Below are positions 367-42,751 of a stretch of DNA of 51,021 nt, one piece after another. Numbering within the stretch: the stretch's first letter is position 1; each line of letters begins with the position of its first letter. The DNA comes from Cyanobacteria bacterium P01_D01_bin.156. Its GTDB lineage: Bacteria > Cyanobacteriota > Cyanobacteriia > Phormidesmidales > Phormidesmidaceae. The stretch covers positions 1-51,021 of the forward strand of contig JBCCQQ010000047.1 of the NCBI GenBank assembly GCA_039024555.1, in the 5' to 3' direction. The notes under the pieces are model-generated. The model did no database searches and was not told where the DNA came from. It saw nothing but the letters and a program-made list of their open reading frames with translations. The position numbers were made by a program, and so were the translations under genes.

Positions 367-1032
367 TTATAGGTTCTGAAATTGTAACTGCTGATGAAAC
401 CAACTAGCTGCAGCTGTATTTGTTTCTGTTTCCAAACGTTCTAATGTTTGCTCTACTAGTGAAAGTTTCAGACCTGGCAGTACTTGCGATATCTCAAGTG
501 ATTGATAGCTGCCCGATTCAGTTAACCCAAACGCAAACAGACGCATCCCTTTAACATCAATCACCCAATACTCAGAAATGCCTAAACTCGCATAAAGTTG
601 TTTCTGTTCATCTAAGTCCAAACTCAGTGTGGTGTCACCAATTTCACCGACCAAATCCGGTAGACGGTGGCGAGTTGTGCTGATGCGTCGAGGTTCACCC
701 GGCTGCCATTTAGGAATATTATCTCCCTTATACAGTACTAAATCTGGTGCACAAGCCTGAGTTTCTGGCTTCTCAATCAAGCAGCGGCCATAGGATTGAA
801 ATGTTTCATCTGGATGCAGAAAGGCCCATACGAAGAAAATCGCTGTTACCAAATCACTAAATGAGGCATGATTCGGTCCTTCCTTACCCATGTCAGCCCA
901 GAGCCATCCTTGATAAAACGCAATCTTGCGCCAGTCGATTTCCTGACTATCCCTTAGAGCAGCATAATCCTGCCAGGTAGCATTGTACTGCTGGCGAATG
1001 TGAGTAACGCTCTTATCAAGAGAGATGGTCAT
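367..1032 (-). CDS. Uma2 (DUF820) family PD-(D/E)XK-fold putative endonuclease
   Basis: 221-aa ORF with 'APDLVLY...PDLVGEIGDTT...KQLYASLGISEYWVID', typical of cyanobacterial Uma2 proteins. Confidence 0.9.
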   Translation of the reverse strand: MTISLDKSVTHIRQQYNATWQDYAALRDSQEIDWRKIAFYQGWLWADMGKEGPNHASFSDLVTAIFFVWAFLHPDETFQSYGRCLIEKPETQACAPDLVLYKGDNIPKWQPGEPRRISTTRHRLPDLVGEIGDTTLSLDLDEQKQLYASLGISEYWVIDVKGMRLFAFGLTESGSYQSLEISQVLPGLKLSLVEQTLERLETETNTAAASWFHQQLQFQNL

Positions 1033-5666: not shown

Positions 5667-5722
5667 AAACGCTACGAGCCGTCGGTATTCGACAATAAAG
5701 CCCACACATCCCATCAACCTCT

Positions 5723-6241
5723 ATGTCTCAAGCTGCACGAATTATCCAAATTAACATCTCTGACGGTGGCGTACCCAAACGCCCTATCCCTGAAGTAGAA
5801 ATTACCTTAGAAGGACTGCTTGGCGATCGTCAACGCAACCTAAAATACCATGGTGGTCCCGACCGAGCTGTGTGCCTTTGGTCTGCCGACATTATTCAAA
5901 CCCTCCAAAACGAAGGACATCCCATTCAGTCAGGTAGTGCGGGTGAAAATATCACCATTACCGGCCTCTCCTGGGAAAAACTTGTTCCAAATACCCAAGT
6001 GCATCTAGGTAACACTGTTCAACTAAGGATTACCGACTATGCCCCACCCTGTCGAAAAATTAGTAAATATTTTAGCGATCGTCGCCATAGCCGAATTAGT
6101 CAAAAACATTATCCTGGAGTCAGCCGACTCTATGCTCGTGTTTTAACACCAGGTGTTGTTAGCACTGGAGACCAGGTTCATATCAATGAATTTATACCCC
6201 GACAAGACACACCGCGAAACACCTTCGGTACAGTTCAGTAA
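5723..6241 (+). CDS. MOSC domain protein (YiiM-like)
   Basis: 'GGVPK', 'GDRQ...HGGPDRAV', 'GENIT' and 'PC' motifs. Confidence 0.9.
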   Translation: MSQAARIIQINISDGGVPKRPIPEVEITLEGLLGDRQRNLKYHGGPDRAVCLWSADIIQTLQNEGHPIQSGSAGENITITGLSWEKLVPNTQVHLGNTVQLRITDYAPPCRKISKYFSDRRHSRISQKHYPGVSRLYARVLTPGVVSTGDQVHINEFIPRQDTPRNTFGTVQ

Positions 6242-6267
6242 TCCTCATCATATTTTCTAGAATTACC

Positions 6268-6954
6268 ATGCCTACCCCTCGGATTCTTATCGTTCTTACG
6301 TCCCATGATCAGCTTGGCAATACTAACCATGCCACGGGTTTTTGGCTAGAAGAATTGGCCTGCCCGTACTATATTTTTGTTGATGCTGGTGCCAGCGTGA
6401 CATTAGCATCCATCAAAGGAGGACAACCTCCCCTAGATCCTAAAAGTCACCTGGATGAGAGCCAAACAGAGGATACAAAGCGTTTTCTAGCCGATGGTGT
6501 TGCCCAGAAAGCTCTGGCTCACACCATTGCCATCGACCAGGTGAATGCAGATGACTACGATGCTATCTTTCTACCGGGTGGCCACGGCACCATGTGGGAT
6601 TTTTCCACCAGTGCCATCTTGAGCAGCCTGATTGCATCCTTTGATGCAGAGAAGAAAATTGTTGCTGCAGTCTGTCATGCCCCAGCAGGCCTAGTCAATG
6701 TGAAAACCTCATCTGGTGAACCCTTGGTCAAAGGAAAGACGGTCACTGCCTTTAGTAATAGCGAAGAGAAAGCCGTTGAGCTGGATGCCGTTGTTCCGTT
6801 TCTCCTGGAGACTCGCCTTCGCGAACTGGGCGCTACGTTTGAAGCAGGTCCTGACTGGGGGGCATTTTCAAAACAAGATGGAAACCTAATAACGGGACAG
6901 AATCCAGCCTCTTCTGAACCAGCAGCTAAAGCTGTTTTGGCAGCATTATCCTAA
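6268..6954 (+). CDS. DJ-1/PfpI (type 1 glutamine amidotransferase-like; Hsp31/glyoxalase III-like) protein
   Basis: 'GFWLEEL', 'PGGHG', 'AVCHAP' and 'ITGQNPAS' motifs. Confidence 0.92.
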   Translation: MPTPRILIVLTSHDQLGNTNHATGFWLEELACPYYIFVDAGASVTLASIKGGQPPLDPKSHLDESQTEDTKRFLADGVAQKALAHTIAIDQVNADDYDAIFLPGGHGTMWDFSTSAILSSLIASFDAEKKIVAAVCHAPAGLVNVKTSSGEPLVKGKTVTAFSNSEEKAVELDAVVPFLLETRLRELGATFEAGPDWGAFSKQDGNLITGQNPASSEPAAKAVLAALS

Positions 6955-6962
6955 CAGCTAAC

Positions 6963-6998
6963 TATGGATGTATCGCGATTAAGACCGATACATCCATA
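6963..6998 (+). terminator. Hairpin, probable terminator
   Basis: Perfect 13-bp stem TATGGATGTATCG/CGATACATCCATA directly after the DJ-1 stop; no U-tract on + strand. Confidence 0.55.
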
Positions 6999-7184
6999 AA
7001 AGTCAGGGAACGATAAATCTAACCGACACTGTTTTTAGAAGACGGTAAACGCACTCAATATACGCCTAAACACACAGCATCTTTAGGATGTTTTCAGGTT
7101 TTTAGTAGTAACATTGTTGAACTTGATCACATTTACGTTAGAATGCTGTAGCGAAGAATGTCAATGACACCCAATAATTAGAAT

Positions 7185-7982
7185 ATGCTCGGAGCAATTC
7201 TCGGAGATGCAATTGGCTCTGCTCATCAGCGGATTAAGACACAGAGCTTTGAAATAATCACTCCAGGCAGCCACTGGACAGAGAACACTATCTTTATGAT
7301 GGCCACTGCTGATTGTCTGCTCTATGGTGGTGAGTACGAGGAAGTCTACGAGCGTTGGTACGAGTGGTATCCAAAAATAGATGGTGGATACAACAACAGT
7401 TTTAGTCGTTGGGCTGCTGAAAATTGTTCTAAGCCCTATTACAGTTGTCGCAATGATGGGGCAGTCAGAGCAATTCCTGTTGCCTATGCTTTCGACAGTC
7501 TCAAAGAGGTGATGGAAGAAGCTGAACGTTCTGCTAAGGTCAGCCATAACCATCCAGATGGTATTAAGGGGGCTCAAGCCACTGCCGCTGCTGTCTTTTT
7601 AGCTAAGACAGGCACACCAAAGGAGACCATTGCCGGATTGCTCAGTAGCATTTTTGGTTATGATCTTCAAATGCCCTATCAATCTCTGCAAGATGGTTAT
7701 CAGTACAGCACTTTGGCTGGAGATACCGTAGCGCCAGCTATTATTGCTTTTCTTGACTCTAGCGGTTTTGAGGATGCTGTGCGCAAAGCTGTTGGTCTAG
7801 GTGGAGATGCCAAAACATTGGCTGCGATTACGGCAGGTATTGCTGAAGCGTTTTATCCTAAGGTGCCACCGTCTTTACGTAAGTGGGCCTGGGCACTGCT
7901 AGATGAAGGCCAGCAGGATATGATTACGGAATTTCGTGAAGAATTTGTTCAGGATGTGGCTGCAGCAAGAGCAGCAGCATAG
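7185..7982 (+). CDS. ADP-ribosylglycohydrolase (DraG/ARH) family protein with degenerate metal site
   Basis: 'MLGAILGDAIG', 'SHNHPDGIKGA', 'FEDAVRKAVGLGGD'. TDDT appears as TENT and GD(S/T)DT as GDAKT. Confidence 0.85.
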   Translation: MLGAILGDAIGSAHQRIKTQSFEIITPGSHWTENTIFMMATADCLLYGGEYEEVYERWYEWYPKIDGGYNNSFSRWAAENCSKPYYSCRNDGAVRAIPVAYAFDSLKEVMEEAERSAKVSHNHPDGIKGAQATAAAVFLAKTGTPKETIAGLLSSIFGYDLQMPYQSLQDGYQYSTLAGDTVAPAIIAFLDSSGFEDAVRKAVGLGGDAKTLAAITAGIAEAFYPKVPPSLRKWAWALLDEGQQDMITEFREEFVQDVAAARAAA

Positions 7983-8010
7983 GTCTTGTTAGGCGTTTGT
8001 TCTGACTCAG

Positions 8011-8610
8011 ATGCTCGATGTCAGTCAGTCATACACATTCACCAAGATTTTTGAGCTCAAGATTCCAGTTGATGAGCTTGCTGCTGAGCTGGGCTACACT
8101 CTAAATCGTTCTTGGCTGAGTTTGCCTCGTTTTCAAGGTGACCTAGATCGTATTGAAGAGCTTCGTGCCCGCATTGAAGAAATACTGCCATACGTGGATT
8201 TGGCCAGCGAAACGTCAAGGCGAGAAGTGCTGATATCGCGCGTTGTTTCAGAGTTGGTGCACTATACAAAAGCTCAGTTAAGGATTGAATATCCTCTCAA
8301 GGTTACTGCCCAGCTACAGGGGTATTTAGATTATCTTCTGAGAACCCAAACAGAGTTACTGGTTATAGAAGCTAAGCGACAAGATCTTGATTATGGGGTT
8401 ACTCAGCTGATCGCTGAAATGGTTGCTTTAGACCAGTGGGAGAAAACACCAGAGCAATCTATGTTGCTGGGTGTCATAACAACAGGAACTGTCTGGCAGT
8501 TTGCTTGGCTAAACCGCAATACGAAACATTTTGAGCAGGGTTTGGACAGCTATCGTGTTCCTGAGGACTTAGATGTTCTTATGCGCATTTTGGTAGCGGC
8601 TCTTACCTAA
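8011..8610 (+). CDS. PD-(D/E)XK nuclease-like protein (HsdR N-terminal-like)
   Basis: 'IEYPL...GYLDYLL...LVIEAK...TQLIAEM...GVITTGTVWQF'. Confidence 0.7.
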   Translation: MLDVSQSYTFTKIFELKIPVDELAAELGYTLNRSWLSLPRFQGDLDRIEELRARIEEILPYVDLASETSRREVLISRVVSELVHYTKAQLRIEYPLKVTAQLQGYLDYLLRTQTELLVIEAKRQDLDYGVTQLIAEMVALDQWEKTPEQSMLLGVITTGTVWQFAWLNRNTKHFEQGLDSYRVPEDLDVLMRILVAALT

Positions 8611-8751
8611 ATACGCATAAGATCAAGCACTGTAGACTAAGCAGAAGCGTCGCTATTTGTTTGGGAAAATCTAGAGGGCTGGCACAGGGTGTAGAAGAAA
8701 ATTAGCCTACGAAATTTCACTCAATATATTTCTTTAACAGCTACTAAGTCG

Positions 8752-9843
8752 TCACCCTTCTTCAAAAGCTAGCTGAGCATTGTAGGTGCCTACACCATCT
8801 TTTCTCTCTTTACGTATTGCTTTTCGCATGGGTTTTGACAAATATGATTTTTTCTTCAATTCCTCATCAGTTTTCTCAAGAAGCTCATCCACAATTGCAC
8901 AAGCTTCTTGATCCATAGGATCTTGTGATTGTGATAGTTTTGAAGGCTCTGGAAATAATGAGCTAGAAGAGTCTTCTAGATATAGCTTTTTCTTAATAGT
9001 TGAAGTATGGATATCTTTAAATGTATTTTTGATCTTCTGTATATGTAAATTTGTGCAGTATGGTCCATCTTTCTGACGAATAAAATACGCACCTGTATAA
9101 AGAATTCCATGCGTTTTATGTAAATTATATTCGACTAGATAGACTATTTTGTGTAGAGCAAAGTATGAAATATATTTTTGTTTGTTCAGTATATATTGAA
9201 CTAAATCAATTAAACTTTCTCCTACCTTTCCATAGACTTTTTTCTTCTTGACCCCCTGAGATTTCATAACATCTGAAATAAACTTATAGTCAGATTGCTG
9301 GTTAATAAAGCTCCGATGGAGCATAGCTCTTTGGCCTGGATGGTAAATAGGTATAAGAATCCTGCCATACCAGTTGCAGCGAGTTCTGACAGACTCCTTT
9401 AGAGTCAATTTGTGAGGTTCTATATAGGTTAGAGCCCGAAGAGCTGTGGCACCTATTGTTACAATTATTTTGGGGTCAACTACATCTATTTGCTGCTTAA
9501 GGAAAGCAGAACAGTTTGCGATCTCATTCGTTTTAGGCGTTGCATTATTACCATCCTCAGAACGAGGGTTGCAAAGAACAGCATTTGTTACAAATATTTC
9601 ACTGCGCGATATATTTGCAAACTCAAGTAAAGCCTCAAAATTATGCCCTGACTTGTCTCCGTAAAAAGGAATTCCTGTATCATCAGCACCCAAACGTCCC
9701 GGGGCTTCTCCAATAAACATAGCTTCTGCTAAAACTCTCCCAGAAGCTGGGCCAAGAATCTTCGCACTATGCTGCATACGCTCACAGTTAGTGCATGATT
9801 TGACCTGTGTACACAAAATCTCAAATGATTTTTCCTTATCCAA
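8752..9843 (-). CDS. Family-4 [4Fe-4S] uracil-DNA glycosylase fused to a C-terminal Panacea/SocA (DUF4065)-like domain
   Basis: CTNC, FIGEAPG, PFYGDKSG, TNAVLCNP and YHP in the N-terminal ~195 aa. C-terminal 'LHKIVYL...FIRQKDGPY'. TTG start with GGAG upstream. Confidence 0.85.
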   Translation of the reverse strand: MDKEKSFEILCTQVKSCTNCERMQHSAKILGPASGRVLAEAMFIGEAPGRLGADDTGIPFYGDKSGHNFEALLEFANISRSEIFVTNAVLCNPRSEDGNNATPKTNEIANCSAFLKQQIDVVDPKIIVTIGATALRALTYIEPHKLTLKESVRTRCNWYGRILIPIYHPGQRAMLHRSFINQQSDYKFISDVMKSQGVKKKKVYGKVGESLIDLVQYILNKQKYISYFALHKIVYLVEYNLHKTHGILYTGAYFIRQKDGPYCTNLHIQKIKNTFKDIHTSTIKKKLYLEDSSSSLFPEPSKLSQSQDPMDQEACAIVDELLEKTDEELKKKSYLSKPMRKAIRKERKDGVGTYNAQLAFEEG

Positions 9844-9848
9844 TGGCC

Positions 9849-10592
9849 CTACTCCCCAAATAAAAGTTCCTGCTGCATATTGAGCCTTGCAAGCGCTTCC
9901 AAAGGACCTTTATGATCTGAATAAGCCCGGACTGAGTGACATATTAACTTACCAGCATTGGTATCTGTAGCATTTGCAACGAAGTCAAGTAATTGACCTA
10001 ACCCAATAAAATTGCCCAGTGCCTTTTCAAAAAAATCATGATTTCTGTAAACAACAACTAGATCTAGTGTGCCTTTAACAGGTTGCACGAACTGCAGATA
10101 CTGAAGACATGGATTTCCTAATCGCTTAGCTAAAGAATCATAATCAGCTGATGAAATATGAATTGGATTGGTTGTTCTGAACCACCTGTCTTCGTTATTA
10201 AGAACCTTAATGATAGTCTCTAGCTGGTTATTATTAGCATCATCCCCAAAACAGATCATTCTTCTAAAGTAAGTACCCCATCTATCTTTCTTTTGATTGC
10301 CCAAACGACTTCTTCGAGAATCTACTTCAAGGTAGTACTTATAAAGTTCATCTCTTGTACGCTCTTTTACAAGACGTCTAGGAAATATGGTGTTGATCAC
10401 ATCCGATAGTGATGTACCGTTCGACTTTGGAATGAATGATCTGGGGTTGTAGGTCGAGATCCATTCCTCATCTAAGACTTTGGGATTCTCAATTGTTGTT
10501 ACTAGATTGAATAAACTATAATCTTGTTCGATAAGGATATTACATCCCTCTTTCCATGCTTCTAAGCATGTTTCTCCACTTACATGATACAT
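9849..10592 (-). CDS. Divergent thymidylate synthase-fold protein
   Basis: 'GNPCLQYLQF' (catalytic Cys), 'YRNHD' (QRSxD equivalent), 'ALGNF' (Asn177 equivalent), 'NQLETII', 'CHSVRAY'. Confidence 0.75.
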   Translation of the reverse strand: MYHVSGETCLEAWKEGCNILIEQDYSLFNLVTTIENPKVLDEEWISTYNPRSFIPKSNGTSLSDVINTIFPRRLVKERTRDELYKYYLEVDSRRSRLGNQKKDRWGTYFRRMICFGDDANNNQLETIIKVLNNEDRWFRTTNPIHISSADYDSLAKRLGNPCLQYLQFVQPVKGTLDLVVVYRNHDFFEKALGNFIGLGQLLDFVANATDTNAGKLICHSVRAYSDHKGPLEALARLNMQQELLFGE

Positions 10593-11489
10593 CTACAGCT
10601 TGTGTAAAAAACTAATCTCTCTAGCTAATAAGTCAATCTTGACATATCCCCCATTATAGCGATTTAATTTTCTGTACACTTCATATCCTTTTAGGATAGA
10701 CAATCTCCATTCGTATAGTGTTCTATCTTTAACCTCAAAACCTGAGACTAAATTTCGGATTGTTGACAAAACATCTAAATCAATTTCTCGGAGGTTTTCA
10801 AGCATGTAATGTCGTTTGGCATAGCTAAATATATAGAGAGATATAGCTTCTTCTGTAATTCGTGCTCTTGCTCCATCTTCTACTTCATCAACTTGAGGAC
10901 TAGATTTCCGCTTGATATTCAGTAGGTCACGAAGCACTGGGGACCAACCTAAAATAGCTGCATACGATAGGTGAAAGACATCATGAAATCTGTAAAGATC
11001 ATCTACATATGAGTTATCGGTCAATGTGTCGCCAATTTTATTCTCATTTCCTTCTGAATCAACTATGTAAACACTAGCTGCTTCATCATTTTGATTTTTC
11101 TCAAACCGTAATAACAGCTTGCGTGGTAATTGTTCTTCTGCAGGAAAACTTTGATCGTAGATTATGTATTCTTCTCGGCACTTAGAGCTACTAACCCAGC
11201 GATCTTCAGCTTTGTCTAGATTTTCTTTTGCAATTTCATTTAATGATAAATCCCACTTAGATGCTAAATTTGCGACGTACCACAAGACATCACCAATCTC
11301 TTCTCTTAAGTCGAGAATAAAATGTTCATAACTTTCACCATCTCGAATCCTTTTCTTAAAGCATGTGACCAGCGAGCCTAGCTCCCCAATTATCCCTAAG
11401 ATAGGTATCGTCAAAGATGCACCATCATCATTTACATCCGGAAATTGATCAGTGAGCTGAGCTTTTTTTTGATATTCATCTAGTTCCAT
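10593..11489 (-). CDS. MazG-like nucleotide pyrophosphohydrolase with C-terminal MazG-C domain
   Basis: 'YQ...LGIIGELGSL...EEIGDVLWY' MazG core and C-terminal 'DLYRFHDVFH' (DxYRxHDxxH), 'EVEDGARA'. Confidence 0.88.
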   Translation of the reverse strand: MELDEYQKKAQLTDQFPDVNDDGASLTIPILGIIGELGSLVTCFKKRIRDGESYEHFILDLREEIGDVLWYVANLASKWDLSLNEIAKENLDKAEDRWVSSSKCREEYIIYDQSFPAEEQLPRKLLLRFEKNQNDEAASVYIVDSEGNENKIGDTLTDNSYVDDLYRFHDVFHLSYAAILGWSPVLRDLLNIKRKSSPQVDEVEDGARARITEEAISLYIFSYAKRHYMLENLREIDLDVLSTIRNLVSGFEVKDRTLYEWRLSILKGYEVYRKLNRYNGGYVKIDLLAREISFLHKL

Positions 11490-11642
11490 ATGACCTTGTA
11501 CTTAAAGCAGCTAGTTCAAATTGTTGAATACGTTCTAAAGCCGCTCATTATGCAAAGCTTGTTTGGAGAATGCTTTGAAAGGTAGATTATATTAATCTAC
11601 TAATTTCCTTAGAGAAGTATGAAACATGATTTCACCACATAG

Positions 11643-11777
11643 CTAGTGGAGCGTCAAAGCTAAAAATTAGGATTGACCCAGTTATTCAGTGAGTCGTGAA
11701 TCGCATTCTTGATAAGGTCTAGCGGTAGTAAAGGCGATTCTCATCGATCCCAAATCTCAGTCTTGACGCTCCACTAG
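11643..11777. mobile_element. MITE-like element (127 bp between two CTAG copies)
   Basis: Perfect 15-bp inverted repeat CTAGTGGAGCGTCAA (11643-11657) / TTGACGCTCCACTAG (11763-11777), extending imperfectly inward (about 23/30). CTAG at both ends may be a target duplication. No coding capacity. Confidence 0.65.
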
Positions 11778-12053
11778 TAGAGTAATCTGCTCAAGTTCTC
11801 GGATTACGAAATCCTGACTGTCTTTGGCTTTAAAATCATTCGAAATGCTTACAGCATATAGTCGATCCCTAGCAGCCTGATGCGTCTGTTTACGTAAAAA
11901 GTAGATGGCAGCTTCTAAACGCTTTTCGGACAGCTTCTCTAACTGTTGAAAACCATTTTTTATTCATTATTACGCTACTTCAAAACTGCAGAGCTTAGTC
12001 AAATTATACTCAAACTAAAATCAAATGGCCTCGCTGCAATTGTGACTACTTAA

Positions 12054-12542
12054 CTATGCAACAATCTCCAAACTTAACCCATAGGTCTTCATCAAATTGC
12101 ATGTATCGTGATCCACCACATTGGTATCACTTAGCTCTAGATTATAGAAATTAATCATATCCGTCTCAAAATAAGGTCCTGCATGCCAAGTGCCCACTTC
12201 CAGCTTGATAAAACAATCTCCAGGAATCTTAAACGCCTGAATTTGTTGTGGGTCTGGTGCAGGTCCCTTACAAGGTGGAGCTACTGCCATCAGCCACTCT
12301 TTTCCTTCCAGAGACCCTAAACACTGGGTGCAGGCTAAATGCCGCGTAATCCGATCAAACCGGGTGCCCTTCTGCTTCAGTTGCATAATGTAAAAACGCG
12401 GAATTCCTCCGTCCAGCTTTAGCTGTGCATCTTCAGAATCGTAAGCTTTACCATCCCCCTGGGGACGTAACACCTGGCCAAAGGGACGAAATGCTTCGGC
12501 AGTCAACGGTTGAGCCTTAAGCTGTTGCAACCTAGTTTCCAT
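12054..12542 (-). CDS. allA: Ureidoglycolate lyase family protein
   Basis: 'LTAEAFRPFGQV', 'TRHLACTQCL', 'GTWHAGP' cupin-like motifs. Confidence 0.75.
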   Translation of the reverse strand: METRLQQLKAQPLTAEAFRPFGQVLRPQGDGKAYDSEDAQLKLDGGIPRFYIMQLKQKGTRFDRITRHLACTQCLGSLEGKEWLMAVAPPCKGPAPDPQQIQAFKIPGDCFIKLEVGTWHAGPYFETDMINFYNLELSDTNVVDHDTCNLMKTYGLSLEIVA

Positions 12543-39568: not shown

Positions 39569-42500
39569 TTAAGACTGTTTTTGATCGGTTATTTGGGCCA
39601 GGCTAGAGCAGGTTTTTGTGTAATCTTCTTTTGTGCCAAAAAACTGATCCCATTCTTCGGTGGTGAGATTACGGGTTAAGCGTCGACAGCTTTCTTCAAT
39701 TAAATTATCAATTTCAATAGGTAAAATTTGGGCTGTGTTACCACTCTGCGTCAACAGTTGGTTGCCATCAGCACTCAGATGTACGCTATCGACAGCTTCT
39801 GTGTGAGGAATGCGAGCAATTTCCAGGATTTGCTGTTGCTCCCAATCTGCTAAAGCCTGTTCGGGGTCCCGTTCTTCAACAGCGGCTAAATCCCATACCC
39901 GTGCTGTCTTATCAACACTACCCGTGGCTAAATAGCGGCCATTATTGCCAAAACTAACCGCTATTACTGCATCTTCATGAATAATGGGATCCAGTTCTAT
40001 TTGCTTTTGCAGGTCCCATATCTTGACCGTTTTATCTGAGCTACCGGTGGCTATGTAGCGGTTATTGCGGCTAAAGCTGAGAGCATTGATAGGTCCCTCG
40101 TGCACGATACGGAAGGGTTCGTCGCCACCTGTCTCTAAGTCCCACACCCTAGCTACGTTGTCATTGCTCCCAGTGGCTAGATAACGACCGTCAGAGCTAA
40201 ATCCCACATCTGTGACCTCTCCTTCATGGATAAAGCTGCCTATCTGCTTAGCCTCATTGACATCCCATAGAATGGCCATATTGTTGGTACCACCAATCGC
40301 AACATACTGATTGTCAGGACTCAAACTGAGGCTAACAATATCTGCATCGTAGGGAATACTAGAAATCTTTTGCTGTGATTGCCATTCCCAGATTGTTAAT
40401 GTGTTATCTAAGCTGCTTGTGGCAAGATAGCGGTCATCTTGTATGTTGAACACCACGTTTTTGACGGGGTGCTCATGAACCATTTGAGCAATAACTTGTT
40501 TATCCTGTAAATTCCAAACCCTTGCAACCTTGTCGCCACTGGCAGTCGCTAGATGGAGCTTGTCAAAGCTGAAGTCGATATTCTCAATATTGTTATGGGT
40601 GATGCGGGGTTTTTCTTGATTGCTTTCTAGGTCCCATACCCGTGCTGTCTTATCTTCGCTACCCGTAACAATATAGCGTCCATCACGGCTAAAGTTCACG
40701 TGGATGATGGCCTTTTCATGAACGATACGGGCCACCTCGCGGTTGTTGTCTAAATCCCAAACTTGTGCCGTATTATCACTACTGCCGGTAGCCAGATAGC
40801 GGCCATTTGCACTAAAGCTAAAGTCTTCCACATTGCCTGTATGAGCGATACGTGCGGCTTCTTTATTACCCTTGAGATCCCAAGCTCTCATACTCTTAGT
40901 GCCTTCACTTCGGGTTGCAAGATACTTGCTGTTGGGGCTAAATCTAAGATCTATGACCTTATTGTCATTGTCGATACGAAGCGCTTCTTTACCCTGCCGT
41001 AAATTCCATACAATTACCGTCTTTTCCTGACTGACCGTGGCTAAATAAACACCATCTGGGCTAAAGCTAACGCCCTCTACTGCATTCTTGTGGCTAATGG
41101 TTTCACGATTTCTTTGTAGGTCCCAGACTCTAAACGTATCACTGGTCTTACGATTAGCAACGTAGAGACTGTCAGGGCTAAACCGAATATCTGCCACAGC
41201 ATCTGCATGACTGATGACAGAATGTCGATTTTCATTCAATGCTTGAATTCTGATTTCTCTGTTATTTAAACGATAGGCAAAATTACGGTCATTTGGGCTA
41301 AAGCGCACATCATAGTTCTGCCCATAGTACGAGATGTTGTTGTGAGTAACCTGTTTTGTCTTCAGATTCCATAGAGTGACTTTTTTGCCACTGTGCAGAA
41401 GCGCAAGGTACGTATTATTGGGGCTAAACATAACCTTCTCAACATTGTTCCACGTAGGAAACTCTTTGACTTTTTGTTTGGTATTTAGCTCCCATAAGCT
41501 AACGGTATTGTTATCACTACGAGCAGCCATGTAGCTACCGTTGGGGCTAAACTTAACTTCTTGCAGAGTACTCTCTTGGGGAGTATAGTAAGTGACTGCT
41601 TGATTCTCCTCAAGAGACCATAGGTCTACGCCTTGACCACCACTACGACTTATAAAATATTGATTGTTGGGGCTAAAGCTAATTTCTTTGGAGCTAAAGT
41701 CTTGTACGAGCTGATTTTTTTGTAAATCCCAGAGTTTCCCGGTATTGTCATCACTGCGGGTAGCTAGATAGCGCCCATCATTACTAAAGATGGCTTCCTC
41801 AACAGCTTCCTCATGAACGACAGCAGATGTTTGGGGGGGTAACAGCGCCAAGCTACTGTATAGGATATGACTGGCTTCCCCAGTAGAGGCTTTTCTATCC
41901 TGCAGTCCTTTCATCGCGGCGGTTGCTAACAGGAGTCCTTTGTCTAGGTCCTGTTGGGTAAATTGCCGAGAACGTGTGATAATCCGCTGATATTTTGCGA
42001 TCGCATTCAAATCAGAAATTTTATTTTGGGCACGTTGGAGGTTCTGCAGATTTTGATTGGCTTGGTCATAGAGCCTAAATGCGGTTGCCCCTGCCCCCAC
42101 TGCCATGACTAGCAGACTGCCTAACACAGCAATGGTGACCCGCTGGCGATTGTTCGTGGCTCGACGGGCCGCTACGGAGGCAGAGACATAATCTATTTGA
42201 GACTTAGTGGGTTGAGGTTCCTGGCTAGCACTCGATTTAATTAACCACTGAGCCGCCTGTTCTAAAACTCGGCCTCGTAATAGCAAACCATTGTCTCGAC
42301 TGCTTTTTTCCCATCTAATCGCCTGCGTGAGTAAGGTGGCATGAGCTTGCCAGTACTCTAAATCAATATCAATACTCTTAACGAGGTCGATAAACTTGGC
42401 CCGAAAGTCGTCCTTAGTTCGAAAGTAAATCCAGTTGAGTTTGGCCAGCGCCGGATGCACTTCATCAGCTTTTACATCGCGGCGCACAATGGGAATCAAC

Positions 42501-42751
42501 CGCTTGTTATTTTTGACAGCATGGTCAATTTCCTTACGACAGACTTTGGACGCCACCGAGTCAGGGCTCAAAATAAAGATAAAGGTATGGGCGGTTTCGA
42601 TGCCAGCTTCTATCTCTTTCCACCAGTCTGCGGTAAGCGGGATATTCTGCCAATCTACCCAAGTGTCATACTTACTCCGTATTAGGGCCGCATCAAGGGT
42701 GCGTACAAATTCTGTATCCTTGCGGGAATAGGAGATGAATAAATCAGCCAT
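39569..42751 (-). CDS. TIR domain - TM helix - WD40 repeat protein
   Basis: 'FISYSRKD...WVD...ILSPDSVASKVCRKEI' TIR; 'LLRG..L..A..WL' helical region; hydrophobic 'VTIAVLGSLLVMAVGAGATAF'; more than a dozen FS.DG.YLAT/VWD repeats. Confidence 0.9.
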   Translation of the reverse strand: MADLFISYSRKDTEFVRTLDAALIRSKYDTWVDWQNIPLTADWWKEIEAGIETAHTFIFILSPDSVASKVCRKEIDHAVKNNKRLIPIVRRDVKADEVHPALAKLNWIYFRTKDDFRAKFIDLVKSIDIDLEYWQAHATLLTQAIRWEKSSRDNGLLLRGRVLEQAAQWLIKSSASQEPQPTKSQIDYVSASVAARRATNNRQRVTIAVLGSLLVMAVGAGATAFRLYDQANQNLQNLQRAQNKISDLNAIAKYQRIITRSRQFTQQDLDKGLLLATAAMKGLQDRKASTGEASHILYSSLALLPPQTSAVVHEEAVEEAIFSNDGRYLATRSDDNTGKLWDLQKNQLVQDFSSKEISFSPNNQYFISRSGGQGVDLWSLEENQAVTYYTPQESTLQEVKFSPNGSYMAARSDNNTVSLWELNTKQKVKEFPTWNNVEKVMFSPNNTYLALLHSGKKVTLWNLKTKQVTHNNISYYGQNYDVRFSPNDRNFAYRLNNREIRIQALNENRHSVISHADAVADIRFSPDSLYVANRKTSDTFRVWDLQRNRETISHKNAVEGVSFSPDGVYLATVSQEKTVIVWNLRQGKEALRIDNDNKVIDLRFSPNSKYLATRSEGTKSMRAWDLKGNKEAARIAHTGNVEDFSFSANGRYLATGSSDNTAQVWDLDNNREVARIVHEKAIIHVNFSRDGRYIVTGSEDKTARVWDLESNQEKPRITHNNIENIDFSFDKLHLATASGDKVARVWNLQDKQVIAQMVHEHPVKNVVFNIQDDRYLATSSLDNTLTIWEWQSQQKISSIPYDADIVSLSLSPDNQYVAIGGTNNMAILWDVNEAKQIGSFIHEGEVTDVGFSSDGRYLATGSNDNVARVWDLETGGDEPFRIVHEGPINALSFSRNNRYIATGSSDKTVKIWDLQKQIELDPIIHEDAVIAVSFGNNGRYLATGSVDKTARVWDLAAVEERDPEQALADWEQQQILEIARIPHTEAVDSVHLSADGNQLLTQSGNTAQILPIEIDNLIEESCRRLTRNLTTEEWDQFFGTKEDYTKTCSSLAQITDQKQS

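Follow-up and report, generated by a model that had tools for sequence, protein, structure and literature searches.

Why should three enzymes that all touch the metabolism of deoxyuridine (dU) and thymidine (dT) be encoded end to end on a small AT-rich island from which genomes of the same genus are free? The question is raised by contig JBCCQQ010000047.1 of Cyanobacteria bacterium P01_D01_bin.156, which was analysed over its whole length of 51,021 nucleotides (nt) and is here called the window (coordinates are window positions unless another locus is named). In it, a protein made of a MazG and a MazG_C domain, a divergent enzyme of the thymidylate synthase (TS) fold and a uracil-DNA glycosylase (UDG) predicted to carry a SocA/Panacea domain form a three-gene cassette, which recurs as a unit in metagenomes and is in all likelihood a conflict system. 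Most likely, it acts against phages in an abortive-type response and is built from the enzymology that phages themselves use to replace thymidine with 5-hydroxymethyl-dU (5-hmdU). The chances are close to even that the cassette makes a C5-modified dU nucleotide, probably 5-hmdU, which enters replicating DNA and is excised again by the glycosylase. The features on which the argument turns are the following.

10593..11489, minus strand: gene 1, 298 amino acids (aa), MazG (aa 1 to about 100) followed by MazG_C (aa about 109 to 295)
9849..10592, minus strand: gene 2, 247 aa, divergent TS-fold enzyme, probable dUMP C5-modifying enzyme
9229..9843, minus strand: gene 3, N-terminal domain (aa 1 to about 205), family-4-type UDG by Pfam, profile and motifs
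8752..9228, minus strand: gene 3, C-terminal domain (aa about 206 to 363) and stop codon, predicted SocA/Panacea domain by homologues and fold
8611..12053, no strand: inserted island of 3.44 kb carrying the whole cassette, GC 37-38%, delimited by same-genus comparison and GC profile

Conservation of the unit and exchange of its modules

A profile scan of metagenome contigs with the TS-like gene returned 223 relatives, the best 80 of which were kept as loci; among these best 80, homologues of MazG-MazG_C were found in 71 and homologues of UDG-Panacea likewise in 71. Gene order could be read in the 47 informative loci, i.e. those with at least 900 nt upstream and at least 1,100 nt downstream of the TS-like gene, and in 43 of them the MazG-MazG_C, TS-like and UDG-Panacea genes follow one another directly in this order on one strand. 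Such an arrangement in unrelated metagenomes is far beyond chance, and the conservation of the triad as a unit, one of the points on which an earlier sequence-only reading of this DNA staked its proposal of a joint system, is borne out. There is no fourth component, since the largest homologous cluster among 222 further neighbouring open reading frames (ORFs) has four members. A genome scan with the single TS-like sequence gave one match of 40 residues, in a Lachnospiraceae metagenome-assembled genome (L001), which was dropped as spurious.

The partners of the TS-like gene can be exchanged. In two metagenome loci (L061, L067) a dCTP-deaminase/dUTPase-like protein stands upstream of the TS-like gene in place of MazG-MazG_C, while in a third (L058), and likewise on a Sulfitobacter plasmid, it accompanies MazG-MazG_C or the system as a whole; comparison of the C-terminal part of this variant protein with MazG_C gave no similarity. 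In L078 the UDG is absent and a gene for a 5-hmdU DNA kinase (PF18723, 2.7e-95) is convergent with the TS-like gene. The same partnership prevails within the phylum, where the TS-like family occurs in six of 401 genomes, counting the host: the five other cyanobacterial genomes have an XRE-type helix-turn-helix (HTH) protein, an ImmA/IrrE peptidase and the TS-like enzyme with an adjoining 5-hmdU DNA kinase, which in one of the five is fused to thymidylate kinase. MazG-MazG_C is present in four of these five sister operons, and the fifth has a radical-SAM gene instead.

Distant homologues (25-32% identity) were found in 20 plasmid records, 13 of them conjugative, and six of the 20 loci were examined in detail. 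On the plasmids of Sulfitobacter, Sinorhizobium and Burkholderia glumae, an HTH protein, an ImmA/IrrE peptidase, a papain-like peptidase and the TS-like enzyme are faced by a tandem-MazG-MazG_C protein and a short UDG-superfamily protein without Panacea, which belongs to another UDG branch (weak Pfam match in two of three, match to the family-4 profile in none of three). On the plasmids of Nostoc, Streptomyces and the archaeon Haloarcula, the TS-like gene is paired with a 5-hmdU DNA kinase. The Panacea-less plasmid variants have an XRE and ImmA/IrrE pair in front of the operon. In an alignment of the three system subtypes, the catalytic Cys and the uracil-selecting Asn of the TS-like protein are invariant. 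The constant core of these systems appears, from sequence comparison, to be the TS-like enzyme and MazG-MazG_C, joined by one of two (hydroxymethyl)uracil-DNA enzymes and by one of two switches. No relative was found in 50,697 phage records or in a scan of IMG/VR.

Gene fusions draw the same families together. The 5-hmdU DNA kinase domain is fused to 58 of the 120 listed long MazG_C proteins, in one case along with a thymidylate kinase, and one protein among the 120 (P0174) is a natural fusion of TS-like enzyme, MazG and MazG_C; some of the fused relatives are named 'putative DNA base hypermodification protein' by NCBI. Thymidylate kinase (Tmk) is found in L102 (4046-5776), where it forms a protein of 577 aa with the 5-hmdU DNA kinase, and in P0158 (871 aa), which joins Tmk, 5-hmdU DNA kinase, MazG and MazG_C; these fusions tie the phosphorylation of dNMPs to the same pathway. 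A further MazG_C protein, P0146 (582 aa), is fused to an N6/N4 DNA methyltransferase (PF01555), another link of MazG_C to enzymes acting at the DNA level. Two more observations concern single variants. In three acidobacteria-like soil loci (L073, L074 and L075; in L073 at 8823-9533), a conserved protein of 234-237 aa with no Pfam match lies between UDG-Panacea and an inverted MazG-MazG_C gene, and may be an extra component of a sub-variant. In L100 (G008:C1, 8495-10421), one of the cyanobacterial sister systems, the TS-like gene is truncated to 121 aa by an IS66-family transposase and looks inactivated.

The island and its three proteins

The genes were found as three co-directional ORFs on the minus strand, just as the sequence-only reading had described them: gene 1 ends and gene 2 starts within TAGATG (10595-10590), and a gap of five bases (9848-9844) separates the stop codon of gene 2 from the TTG start of gene 3 at 9843, the whole ORF of which occupies 9843..8752 (363 aa). 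The TTG start is credible because 42 homologues share the residues after it, among them the invariant C17 and C20. The AT-richness pointed out in that reading also holds, with a GC content of 0.366-0.384 in the 1-kb bins of 9001-12000 and of 0.417-0.536 in the other bins of the window; the figures of 23%, 35% and 48% given there are samples of single lines rather than means of a region. A scan for promoters and terminators gave counts equal to the shuffled expectation, and no promoter is claimed; Rfam gave no match on 8500-12200. Among sequencing runs, none of RNA was listed as containing the stretch, and one DNA run, possibly its source, contains it.

Comparison with the same genus marks out the ends of the island. 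Window positions 8610 and 12079 lie only 21 nt apart in one same-genus genome (G404), and positions 8604 and 12054 only 39 nt apart in another (G415). Among the matches listed from 18 same-genus genomes, none falls within 8612-12050 except on a MITE-like repeat, and the gene ending at 8610, which encodes a PD-(D/E)XK protein, and the gene ending at 12054 are neighbours in these genomes. The flanks being contiguous there, the cassette is a recent insertion of 3.44 kb without a recombinase of its own, and horizontal acquisition of a self-contained unit is the best explanation. No convincing direct repeats flank the insert, and no att-like sites are claimed. The repeat resembles a miniature inverted-repeat transposable element (MITE) and is probably a passenger:

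11642..11780, no strand: MITE-like repeat in the insert, upstream of gene 1, probably outside the system, recognized by inverted arms and copies

The element itself measures 136 nt, with inverted arms of 34 nt (11643-11676 and 11744-11777) that are 79% complementary; copies 99-100% identical are present on four other host contigs (C51, C46, C39 and C10) and copies about 74-94% identical in same-genus genomes, and it has no Rfam match.

The relation of gene 2 to TS is established by its fold, since a profile of its family finds no TS chain at E ≤ 1 among the PDB sequences, the two matches obtained being due to chance. The Thymidylat_synt Pfam profile (PF00303) scores 7.7e-4 and 19.1 bits, under its cut-off of 24.3, and TIGR03283 reaches 48.7 bits against a cut-off of 174.55. 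The predicted model (pLDDT 89, pTM 0.89), however, has the TS fold (Foldseek E 3.1e-11; 396 matches at E ≤ 0.001), and the closest structures are those of pyrimidine hydroxylase/hydroxymethylases, i.e. non-methylating TS homologues. Residues were mapped to Escherichia coli ThyA through an hhalign profile alignment, which agrees with the fold match. C162, R183, D186, N194 and Y224 correspond to Cys146, Arg166, Asp169, Asn177 and Tyr209 of ThyA, respectively; the first four are conserved in 32 of 32 family members each and Y224 in 26 of 32, and the position of ThyA Leu143 is taken by Gly159 (32/32).

In ThyA, N177 selects dUMP, while an Asp at this position selects dCMP; the bulky Leu143 is thought to exclude water and thereby hydroxymethylation, and Asp169Asn is a mark of 5-hydroxy-dCMP synthases (all from the available text of PMC13326640). 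Read by these rules, the conserved residues make the TS-like family look uracil-specific, catalytically competent and non-methylating, and not of the 5-hydroxycytosine type. Three features of a dUMP hydroxymethylase were found for gene 2 and its family, namely the uracil-selecting Asn (N194), the open entrance (G159) and linkage of TS-like genes to the 5-hmdU DNA kinase (L078, five of five other cyanobacterial genomes and three of the six plasmid loci examined). The family has no sequence match at E ≤ 1e-5 in phage records, so that common descent with the dUMP hydroxymethylases is conjectural. That gene 2 is no stand-in for thyA, as the sequence-only reading required, follows from the presence of ThyX in the host genome (138.6 bits; no ThyA), the failure at the ThyA cut-offs and the non-methylating character of the nearest structures. 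Among 1.84 billion protein representatives, the family has 1,398 members at E ≤ 1e-3, 838 at 1e-10 and 183 at 1e-30.

Gene 1 begins with a MazG domain (PF03819, 1.9e-5, 25.3 bits against a cut-off of 22, residues 60-97) with the four-helix MazG fold. Its family profile matches the solved structures of iMazG (1.5e-6), YpjD (7e-6) and DCTPP1 (3.2e-4), and the domain is nearest to the DCTPP1/iMazG-type enzymes. Acidic residues are conserved at E36 (38/38), E63 (36/38), E/D64 (37/38) and D67 (37/38); the four metal ligands of MazG proteins are presumably those of the motif E..E ... E..D. The MazG_C domain (residues about 109-295; PF18722, 9.2e-71, 237.8 bits against a cut-off of 29.7, with 184 of 190 profile positions covered) has many invariant polar residues, including a KRKS loop and the motif DxYRxHDxxH already named in the earlier reading, which is indeed present (D164...H173), its six fixed residues being invariant in 38 sequences. 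In the host genome, the completeness of which is 99%, this is the single MazG_C gene, and a 5-hmdU DNA kinase has no match.

In gene 3, the N-terminal 205 residues or so match the Pfam UDG family (2.3e-25, 89.8 bits) and, by profile, the family-4 UDGs TM0511 (5e-29) and 1ui0 (7.7e-25) better than UdgX (about 3e-16) or family 5 (8e-10). Four Cys (C17, C20, C91 and C111) align with those of TM0511 and are invariant in 42 of 42 homologues, as are the motifs GEAPG, PF.GD..G, TNA.LCNP and YHPGQRA, so that the glycosylase looks active on the evidence of its motifs. It is best regarded as a distinct branch near family 4 because it stays under the NCBIfam family-4 cut-offs (TIGR00758, 93 against 125.3 bits; NF040953, 102 against 250); against the NCBIfam UdgX profile it scores 75.4 bits, the cut-off being 189.95. 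As for the C-terminal part of about 160 residues, the SocA_Panacea profile (PF13274) scores 3.1e-3 and 18.9 bits on the window protein, under its cut-off of 25.7, and matches 39 of the 42 homologues at E ≤ 0.01 (best 9.2e-10). In the Atlas, 25 of 30 matches to this part are Panacea clusters (feature score 0.94; structure TM 0.73-0.83), and one cluster of 350 members has the UDG plus Panacea build. Homologues and predicted structure thus identify it as a SocA/Panacea domain. Panacea is described as a promiscuous toxin-neutralizing module of two- and three-gene loci that binds toxins directly (PMC8832971, in the part available).

A mechanism and its rivals

From the observed anatomy, folds, conserved catalytic residues, insertion, conservation as a unit and module swaps, we infer every substrate and product, the order of the steps, the trigger and the anti-phage role as follows. 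MazG would hydrolyse a pyrimidine dNTP (dUTP, dCTP or dTTP), thereby supplying dUMP and/or draining dTTP. Cys162 of the TS-fold enzyme would attack C6 of dUMP, and the open entrance, with Gly in place of Leu143, would let the reaction end in a C5-modified dUMP, most probably 5-hydroxymethyl-dUMP, and not in dTMP. The product would be re-phosphorylated, by MazG_C if this is a nucleotide kinase and otherwise by host kinases, and would be built into replicating DNA, which during infection would be mainly that of the phage. There, the family-4-type glycosylase would remove the modified base (or uracil), leading to abasic sites, breaks and a stop of replication. The fused Panacea domain, acting like an antitoxin and possibly doubling as a sensor, would silence the system as long as there is no infection; in the sister systems, the 5-hmdU DNA kinase would attack the modified base by phosphorylation, with the XRE-ImmA pair as the switch.

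In phages, the route to 5-hmdU consists of a dTTPase/dTMPase, a dCMP deaminase, a TS-homologous dUMP hydroxymethylase and a dNMP kinase (PMC8989533), and some phages then use a 5-hmdU DNA kinase (PMC8989533, PMC5889632), as far as the available text of these papers goes. The reading in which the cell makes the base and then attacks it is the most economical because counterparts of all these enzymes are found in the cassette and its variants, with a glycosylase in addition. It accounts for the presence, in every variant, of an invariant TS-fold enzyme that looks uracil-specific and is not ThyA, and it would also explain why this enzyme can be fused to MazG-MazG_C, why a deaminase-like protein can stand in for MazG and why UDG and kinase are interchangeable. 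Two mechanisms had been put side by side in the sequence-only reading, destruction of the modified dNTPs of a phage and generation of an aberrant nucleotide that is incorporated and then excised. The second is now favoured and the first less so, on account of the variants in which 5-hmdU kinase takes the place of UDG or a dCTP-deaminase-like protein that of MazG, and of the fusion of TS-like enzyme, MazG and MazG_C.

More tentatively, and well short of an even chance, a complete write-then-erase defence can be envisaged, in which the infected cell makes 5-hmdUTP or a related C5 derivative, MazG starves the cell of dTTP, the glycosylase or kinase turns the modified sites into lesions, MazG_C is a new nucleotide-processing fold and possibly the recharging kinase, and Panacea is a lock that senses the phage. 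The combinatorial family, with UDG or kinase as effector and Panacea or XRE-ImmA as switch, would then parallel, in bacteria and archaea, what happens in animal cells, where retroviral DNA is restricted through incorporation and excision of uracil.

Several points weigh against the proposed mechanism. A cell that adds 5-hydroxymethyluracil (hmU) and excises it damages its own chromosome, and the model therefore needs tight control; moreover, the known defence enzymes of the UDG superfamily (Brig1-3) attack bases made by the phage. The hhalign mapping of gene 2 on ThyA is weak, its probability being as low as 9.6% (E 0.0033), and depends on the fold that the two have in common. The phosphate clamp of ThyA (Arg126/Arg127) is unconserved in the TS-like family, the window protein having F138 and R139, so that the substrate may not be a simple dNMP, and His222, the equivalent of H207, is an Arg in the window protein. 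In MazG, the position of the fourth metal ligand (39) is D in 23 of 38 sequences and S in the window protein. MazG_C has no P-loop and no recognizable fold match: the model of the whole gene 1 protein finds structures for the MazG N-domain only, and a structure search of the Atlas returns, apart from MazG_C clusters, one unnamed cluster at TM 0.55 and otherwise rows under 0.4. The idea that MazG_C is a kinase goes back to one phrase in one paper, where it is called 'a predicted nucleotide kinase' (PMC13092281, in the part available), and MazG_C need not be a kinase, given that L102 has a thymidylate-kinase domain alongside it.

Nor is the genomic context unequivocal. The three cassette proteins match no PADLOC-DB 2.0 family at E ≤ 0.1. 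The flanks were assessed on 149 ORFs from 59 metagenome loci, lying within two positions on either side, with 158 ORFs of one cyanobacterial genome, that of the host, as the control (119 from eight arbitrary 20-kb regions and 39 other window ORFs). At E ≤ 1e-20, 26 of 149 flanking and 12 of 158 control ORFs match PADLOC (odds ratio 2.6, p=0.0095); at E ≤ 1e-5, the figures are 37 of 149 and 29 of 158 (p=0.21), the control matches comprising 22 of 119 ORFs of the arbitrary regions and 7 of 39 of the window. The looser threshold was rejected as a measure because about 18% matches arise in the control from domains as generic as those of ATPases, methyltransferases and aminotransferases. The enrichment near defence genes anticipated by the sequence-only reading thus stands at the strict threshold and fails at the loose one; it is real but moderate, threshold-dependent and measured against a single genome, and the flank set includes near-duplicate loci (L057/L062, L015/L016, L051/L053 and L074/L075). 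Strong matches occur in 21 of the 59 flanks, which hold components of type I, IIG and IV restriction systems, RmrA, DarG, SduA, LmuB, DruA, PDC-S19/S21 and a GajB-like helicase. One control region (L088, G000:C5, 6169-16021) carries an entire type I restriction-modification locus, PDC-S02 and PDC-S70 genes included; the host genome is therefore rich in defence islands, and this region raised the control rate.

The main rival, possible but rather unlikely, is a restriction of the Brig type, in which the glycosylase excises uracil, 5-hmU or hypermodified thymidine that the phage has itself put into its DNA, MazG hydrolyses the hmdUTP or dUTP of the phage and the TS-like enzyme diverts dUMP, e.g. 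to dTMP, the three acting in parallel. Enzymes of the UDG superfamily are indeed validated single-gene defences against modified phage DNA, reportedly beginning with Brig1. The kinship of MazG with the DCTPP1/iMazG-type enzymes also suits this view, as do the dUTPase-like replacements of MazG, which would be as compatible with hydrolysis of (hm)dUTP as with a role in providing dUMP. For related enzymes, Brig2 is described as acting on the thymidine-hypermodified phages M6, YuA and Ab18 (10.1101/2025.10.29.685425, available part), and Brig3 as working with a helper, BapA, which first alters the phage base (10.64898/2026.02.25.707755, available part). However, parallel action explains poorly why an invariant, catalytically equipped TS-fold enzyme other than ThyA belongs to every system type, and leaves the fusion of this enzyme to MazG-MazG_C without a proper explanation; dU nucleotides are what a dCTP-deaminase-like enzyme makes, not what it removes, and the distribution over phyla and plasmids is wide for a defence that would serve against no more than the rare phages with dU or hmU.

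Distinctly less probable is a toxin-antitoxin or addiction module, in which the poison of the nucleotide pool is MazG-MazG_C and/or the TS-like enzyme, the Panacea protein neutralizes and repairs, and the island is kept for that reason, with no dedicated anti-phage role. Panacea is, after all, a promiscuous antitoxin domain of two- and three-gene loci (PMC8832971, in the part available), the genes leave hardly any room between them, their ends overlapping or abutting, and the relatives of the cassette ride on conjugative plasmids while the island itself is small and has no integrase. Yet many toxin-antitoxin systems are themselves defence systems, so that this reading is not exclusive; the exchange of UDG for 5-hmdU kinase and of Panacea for XRE-ImmA/IrrE points to an inducible, DNA-directed effector rather than a simple neutralizer, and strong defence genes stand in the flanks already described. 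Two further explanations fit badly, and each is very improbable. A housekeeping operon, in which MazG would clear dUTP, the TS make thymidylate and the UDG repair uracil, would be in keeping with the housekeeping members that each domain family has and with the shared dU/dT metabolism, but not with an insertion absent from 18 same-genus genomes, a family found in so few genomes of the phylum and so rare among protein representatives (838 at E ≤ 1e-10), a genome that already has ThyX, a TS-like protein that fails the ThyA thresholds and has neither the Leu143 nor the Arg126/127 features, or a Panacea domain, which has no place in repair. Self-modification, whereby a modified thymidine placed in its own or the host DNA would shield the element from restriction in the manner of phages, could invoke the homology of the enzymes to the phage hypermodification toolkit (PMC5889632, PMC8989533, in the parts available) and the NCBI name carried by some fused relatives; the glycosylase, though, would remove the mark, the operons examined hold no aGPT-Pplase-type finishing enzyme or dedicated polymerase, and the family is absent from the phage collections searched.

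Relation to known systems and to neighbouring genes

The cassette and its variants follow the same enzyme logic as the 5-hmdU and hypermodification pathways of phages such as SPO1, PhiW-14, SP10, ViI and M6, and relatives of MazG_C and of the TS-like protein are linked or fused to the 5-hmdU DNA kinase of that pathway. Unlike the phage pathway, however, the cassette is found in cellular chromosomes and plasmids and in none of the phage records or IMG/VR sequences scanned, its TS-like protein misses the Pfam cut-off, its glycosylase partner would erase the base, no finishing enzymes are present, and a switch, Panacea or XRE-ImmA, goes with it.

Among validated systems, the one that comes nearest is DS-4 of DefensePredictor, in which a TS, an adenylate-kinase-like dNMP kinase, a 5-hmdU kinase/hypermodification protein and a TIR protein protect E. 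coli, and for which the available text of the paper gives no mechanism (PMC13092281). It shares with the cassette the recruitment of nucleotide-modification enzymes for defence, but its TS has 361 aa and a full ThyA-type match, and its partners are a kinase and TIR where the cassette has a glycosylase (PMC13092281, same text). In the same source, MazG, MazG-C, dUTPase and UDG figure among the defence domains that are predicted but not validated, Burroughs et al. 2015 being cited; searched by domain names and four short motifs, the available portion of its supplements did not yield the triad. A literature search found no paper describing or testing this triad, in agreement with the earlier statement that experimental characterization is lacking, DS-4 with its different TS and partners being the closest; earlier papers of the Aravind laboratory (Burroughs et al. 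2015, Iyer et al. 2013), to which MazG_C and the kinase probably go back, may mention related operons. The defence strategy is one that was previously predicted and never tested.

With Brig1-3 the cassette shares the formation of abasic sites in unwanted DNA by a UDG-superfamily enzyme; Brig3 has a base-modifying helper in the same operon, and Brig2 homologues are also placed in AT-rich, mobile regions (10.1101/2025.10.29.685425, in the part available). The Brig enzymes differ in acting on phage-made bases, with the glycosylase alone being enough for basal defence, whereas the cassette UDG is a family-4 relative with 4Fe-4S Cys, is fused to Panacea (for Brig2 the comparison is with its description) and comes tied to two enzymes of the nucleotide pool which could themselves produce its substrate. 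The family-4 UDGs (Thermotoga maritima TM0511, Thermus thermophilus UDGa) and UdgX have in common with gene 3 the motifs GE[A/G]PG, PF.G, N..(K/L)C.P and HP and the four Cys, but gene 3 has invariants of its own (R50, D54, an extra D63, R172, H176 and R177), a Panacea extension of 160 residues and the context of a mobile operon rather than of repair. In the PanA-PanT systems, a Panacea/SocA domain is likewise encoded with, or fused to, a potentially harmful enzyme, and a term search of the available text of that paper found no UDG, MazG or TS partner mentioned (PMC8832971). That a fused antitoxin-type domain can be both inhibitor and phage sensor is known from CapRel-SJ46 (PMC9712102), the C-terminal domain of which is not Panacea.

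What the present analysis contributes is the combinatorial architecture and the residue-level case for a TS homologue that would be non-methylating and uracil-specific. If the proposed mechanism is true, bacteria and archaea turn a phage counter-defence, the replacement of thymidine, against replicating foreign DNA, and the pairing of a self-made odd base with a base-specific effector would differ from nuclease restriction, from dNTP depletion and from the phage-modification-dependent Brig systems. It would also give functions to MazG_C, to a rare branch of the TS fold and to the UDG-Panacea fusion, and could account for the frequency of 5-hmdU DNA kinase genes in cellular genomes; possible tools are a new pyrimidine C5-modifying enzyme and a glycosylase of possibly new base specificity. 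Being small (2.7 kb, three genes) and self-contained, the cassette is directly testable by heterologous expression.

Some neighbouring genes of the window deserve mention in their own right. The PD-(D/E)XK protein adjoining the insert (8011-8610, plus strand) matches PADLOC PDLC01472 (CRISPR-associated PD-DExK) at 1.6e-27, and is placed outside the cassette because it is conserved in same-genus genomes that do not have the latter. The block of DJ-1 and ADP-ribosylglycohydrolase genes (about 5700-7980) and that of PD-DExK and ureidoglycolate-lyase-like genes (8003 onwards) lie on different contigs in same-genus genomes, and a second point of rearrangement may lie near 8000. Probably by coincidence, brig3-bapA too has an ADP-ribosyl glycohydrolase beside it as a third gene (10.64898/2026.02.25.707755, available part). 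At 370-1032 (minus strand), a Uma2-family putative restriction endonuclease is encoded (Pfam 4.4e-25; PADLOC PDC-S17 6e-12). Finally, the protein of 1060 aa encoded at 39572-42751 (minus strand), with an N-terminal TIR-like domain (PADLOC Aga_TIR 1.3e-10, SAVED_TIR 3.6e-8) followed by HEAT/ARM repeats (5e-22), is a candidate defence gene unrelated to the cassette.

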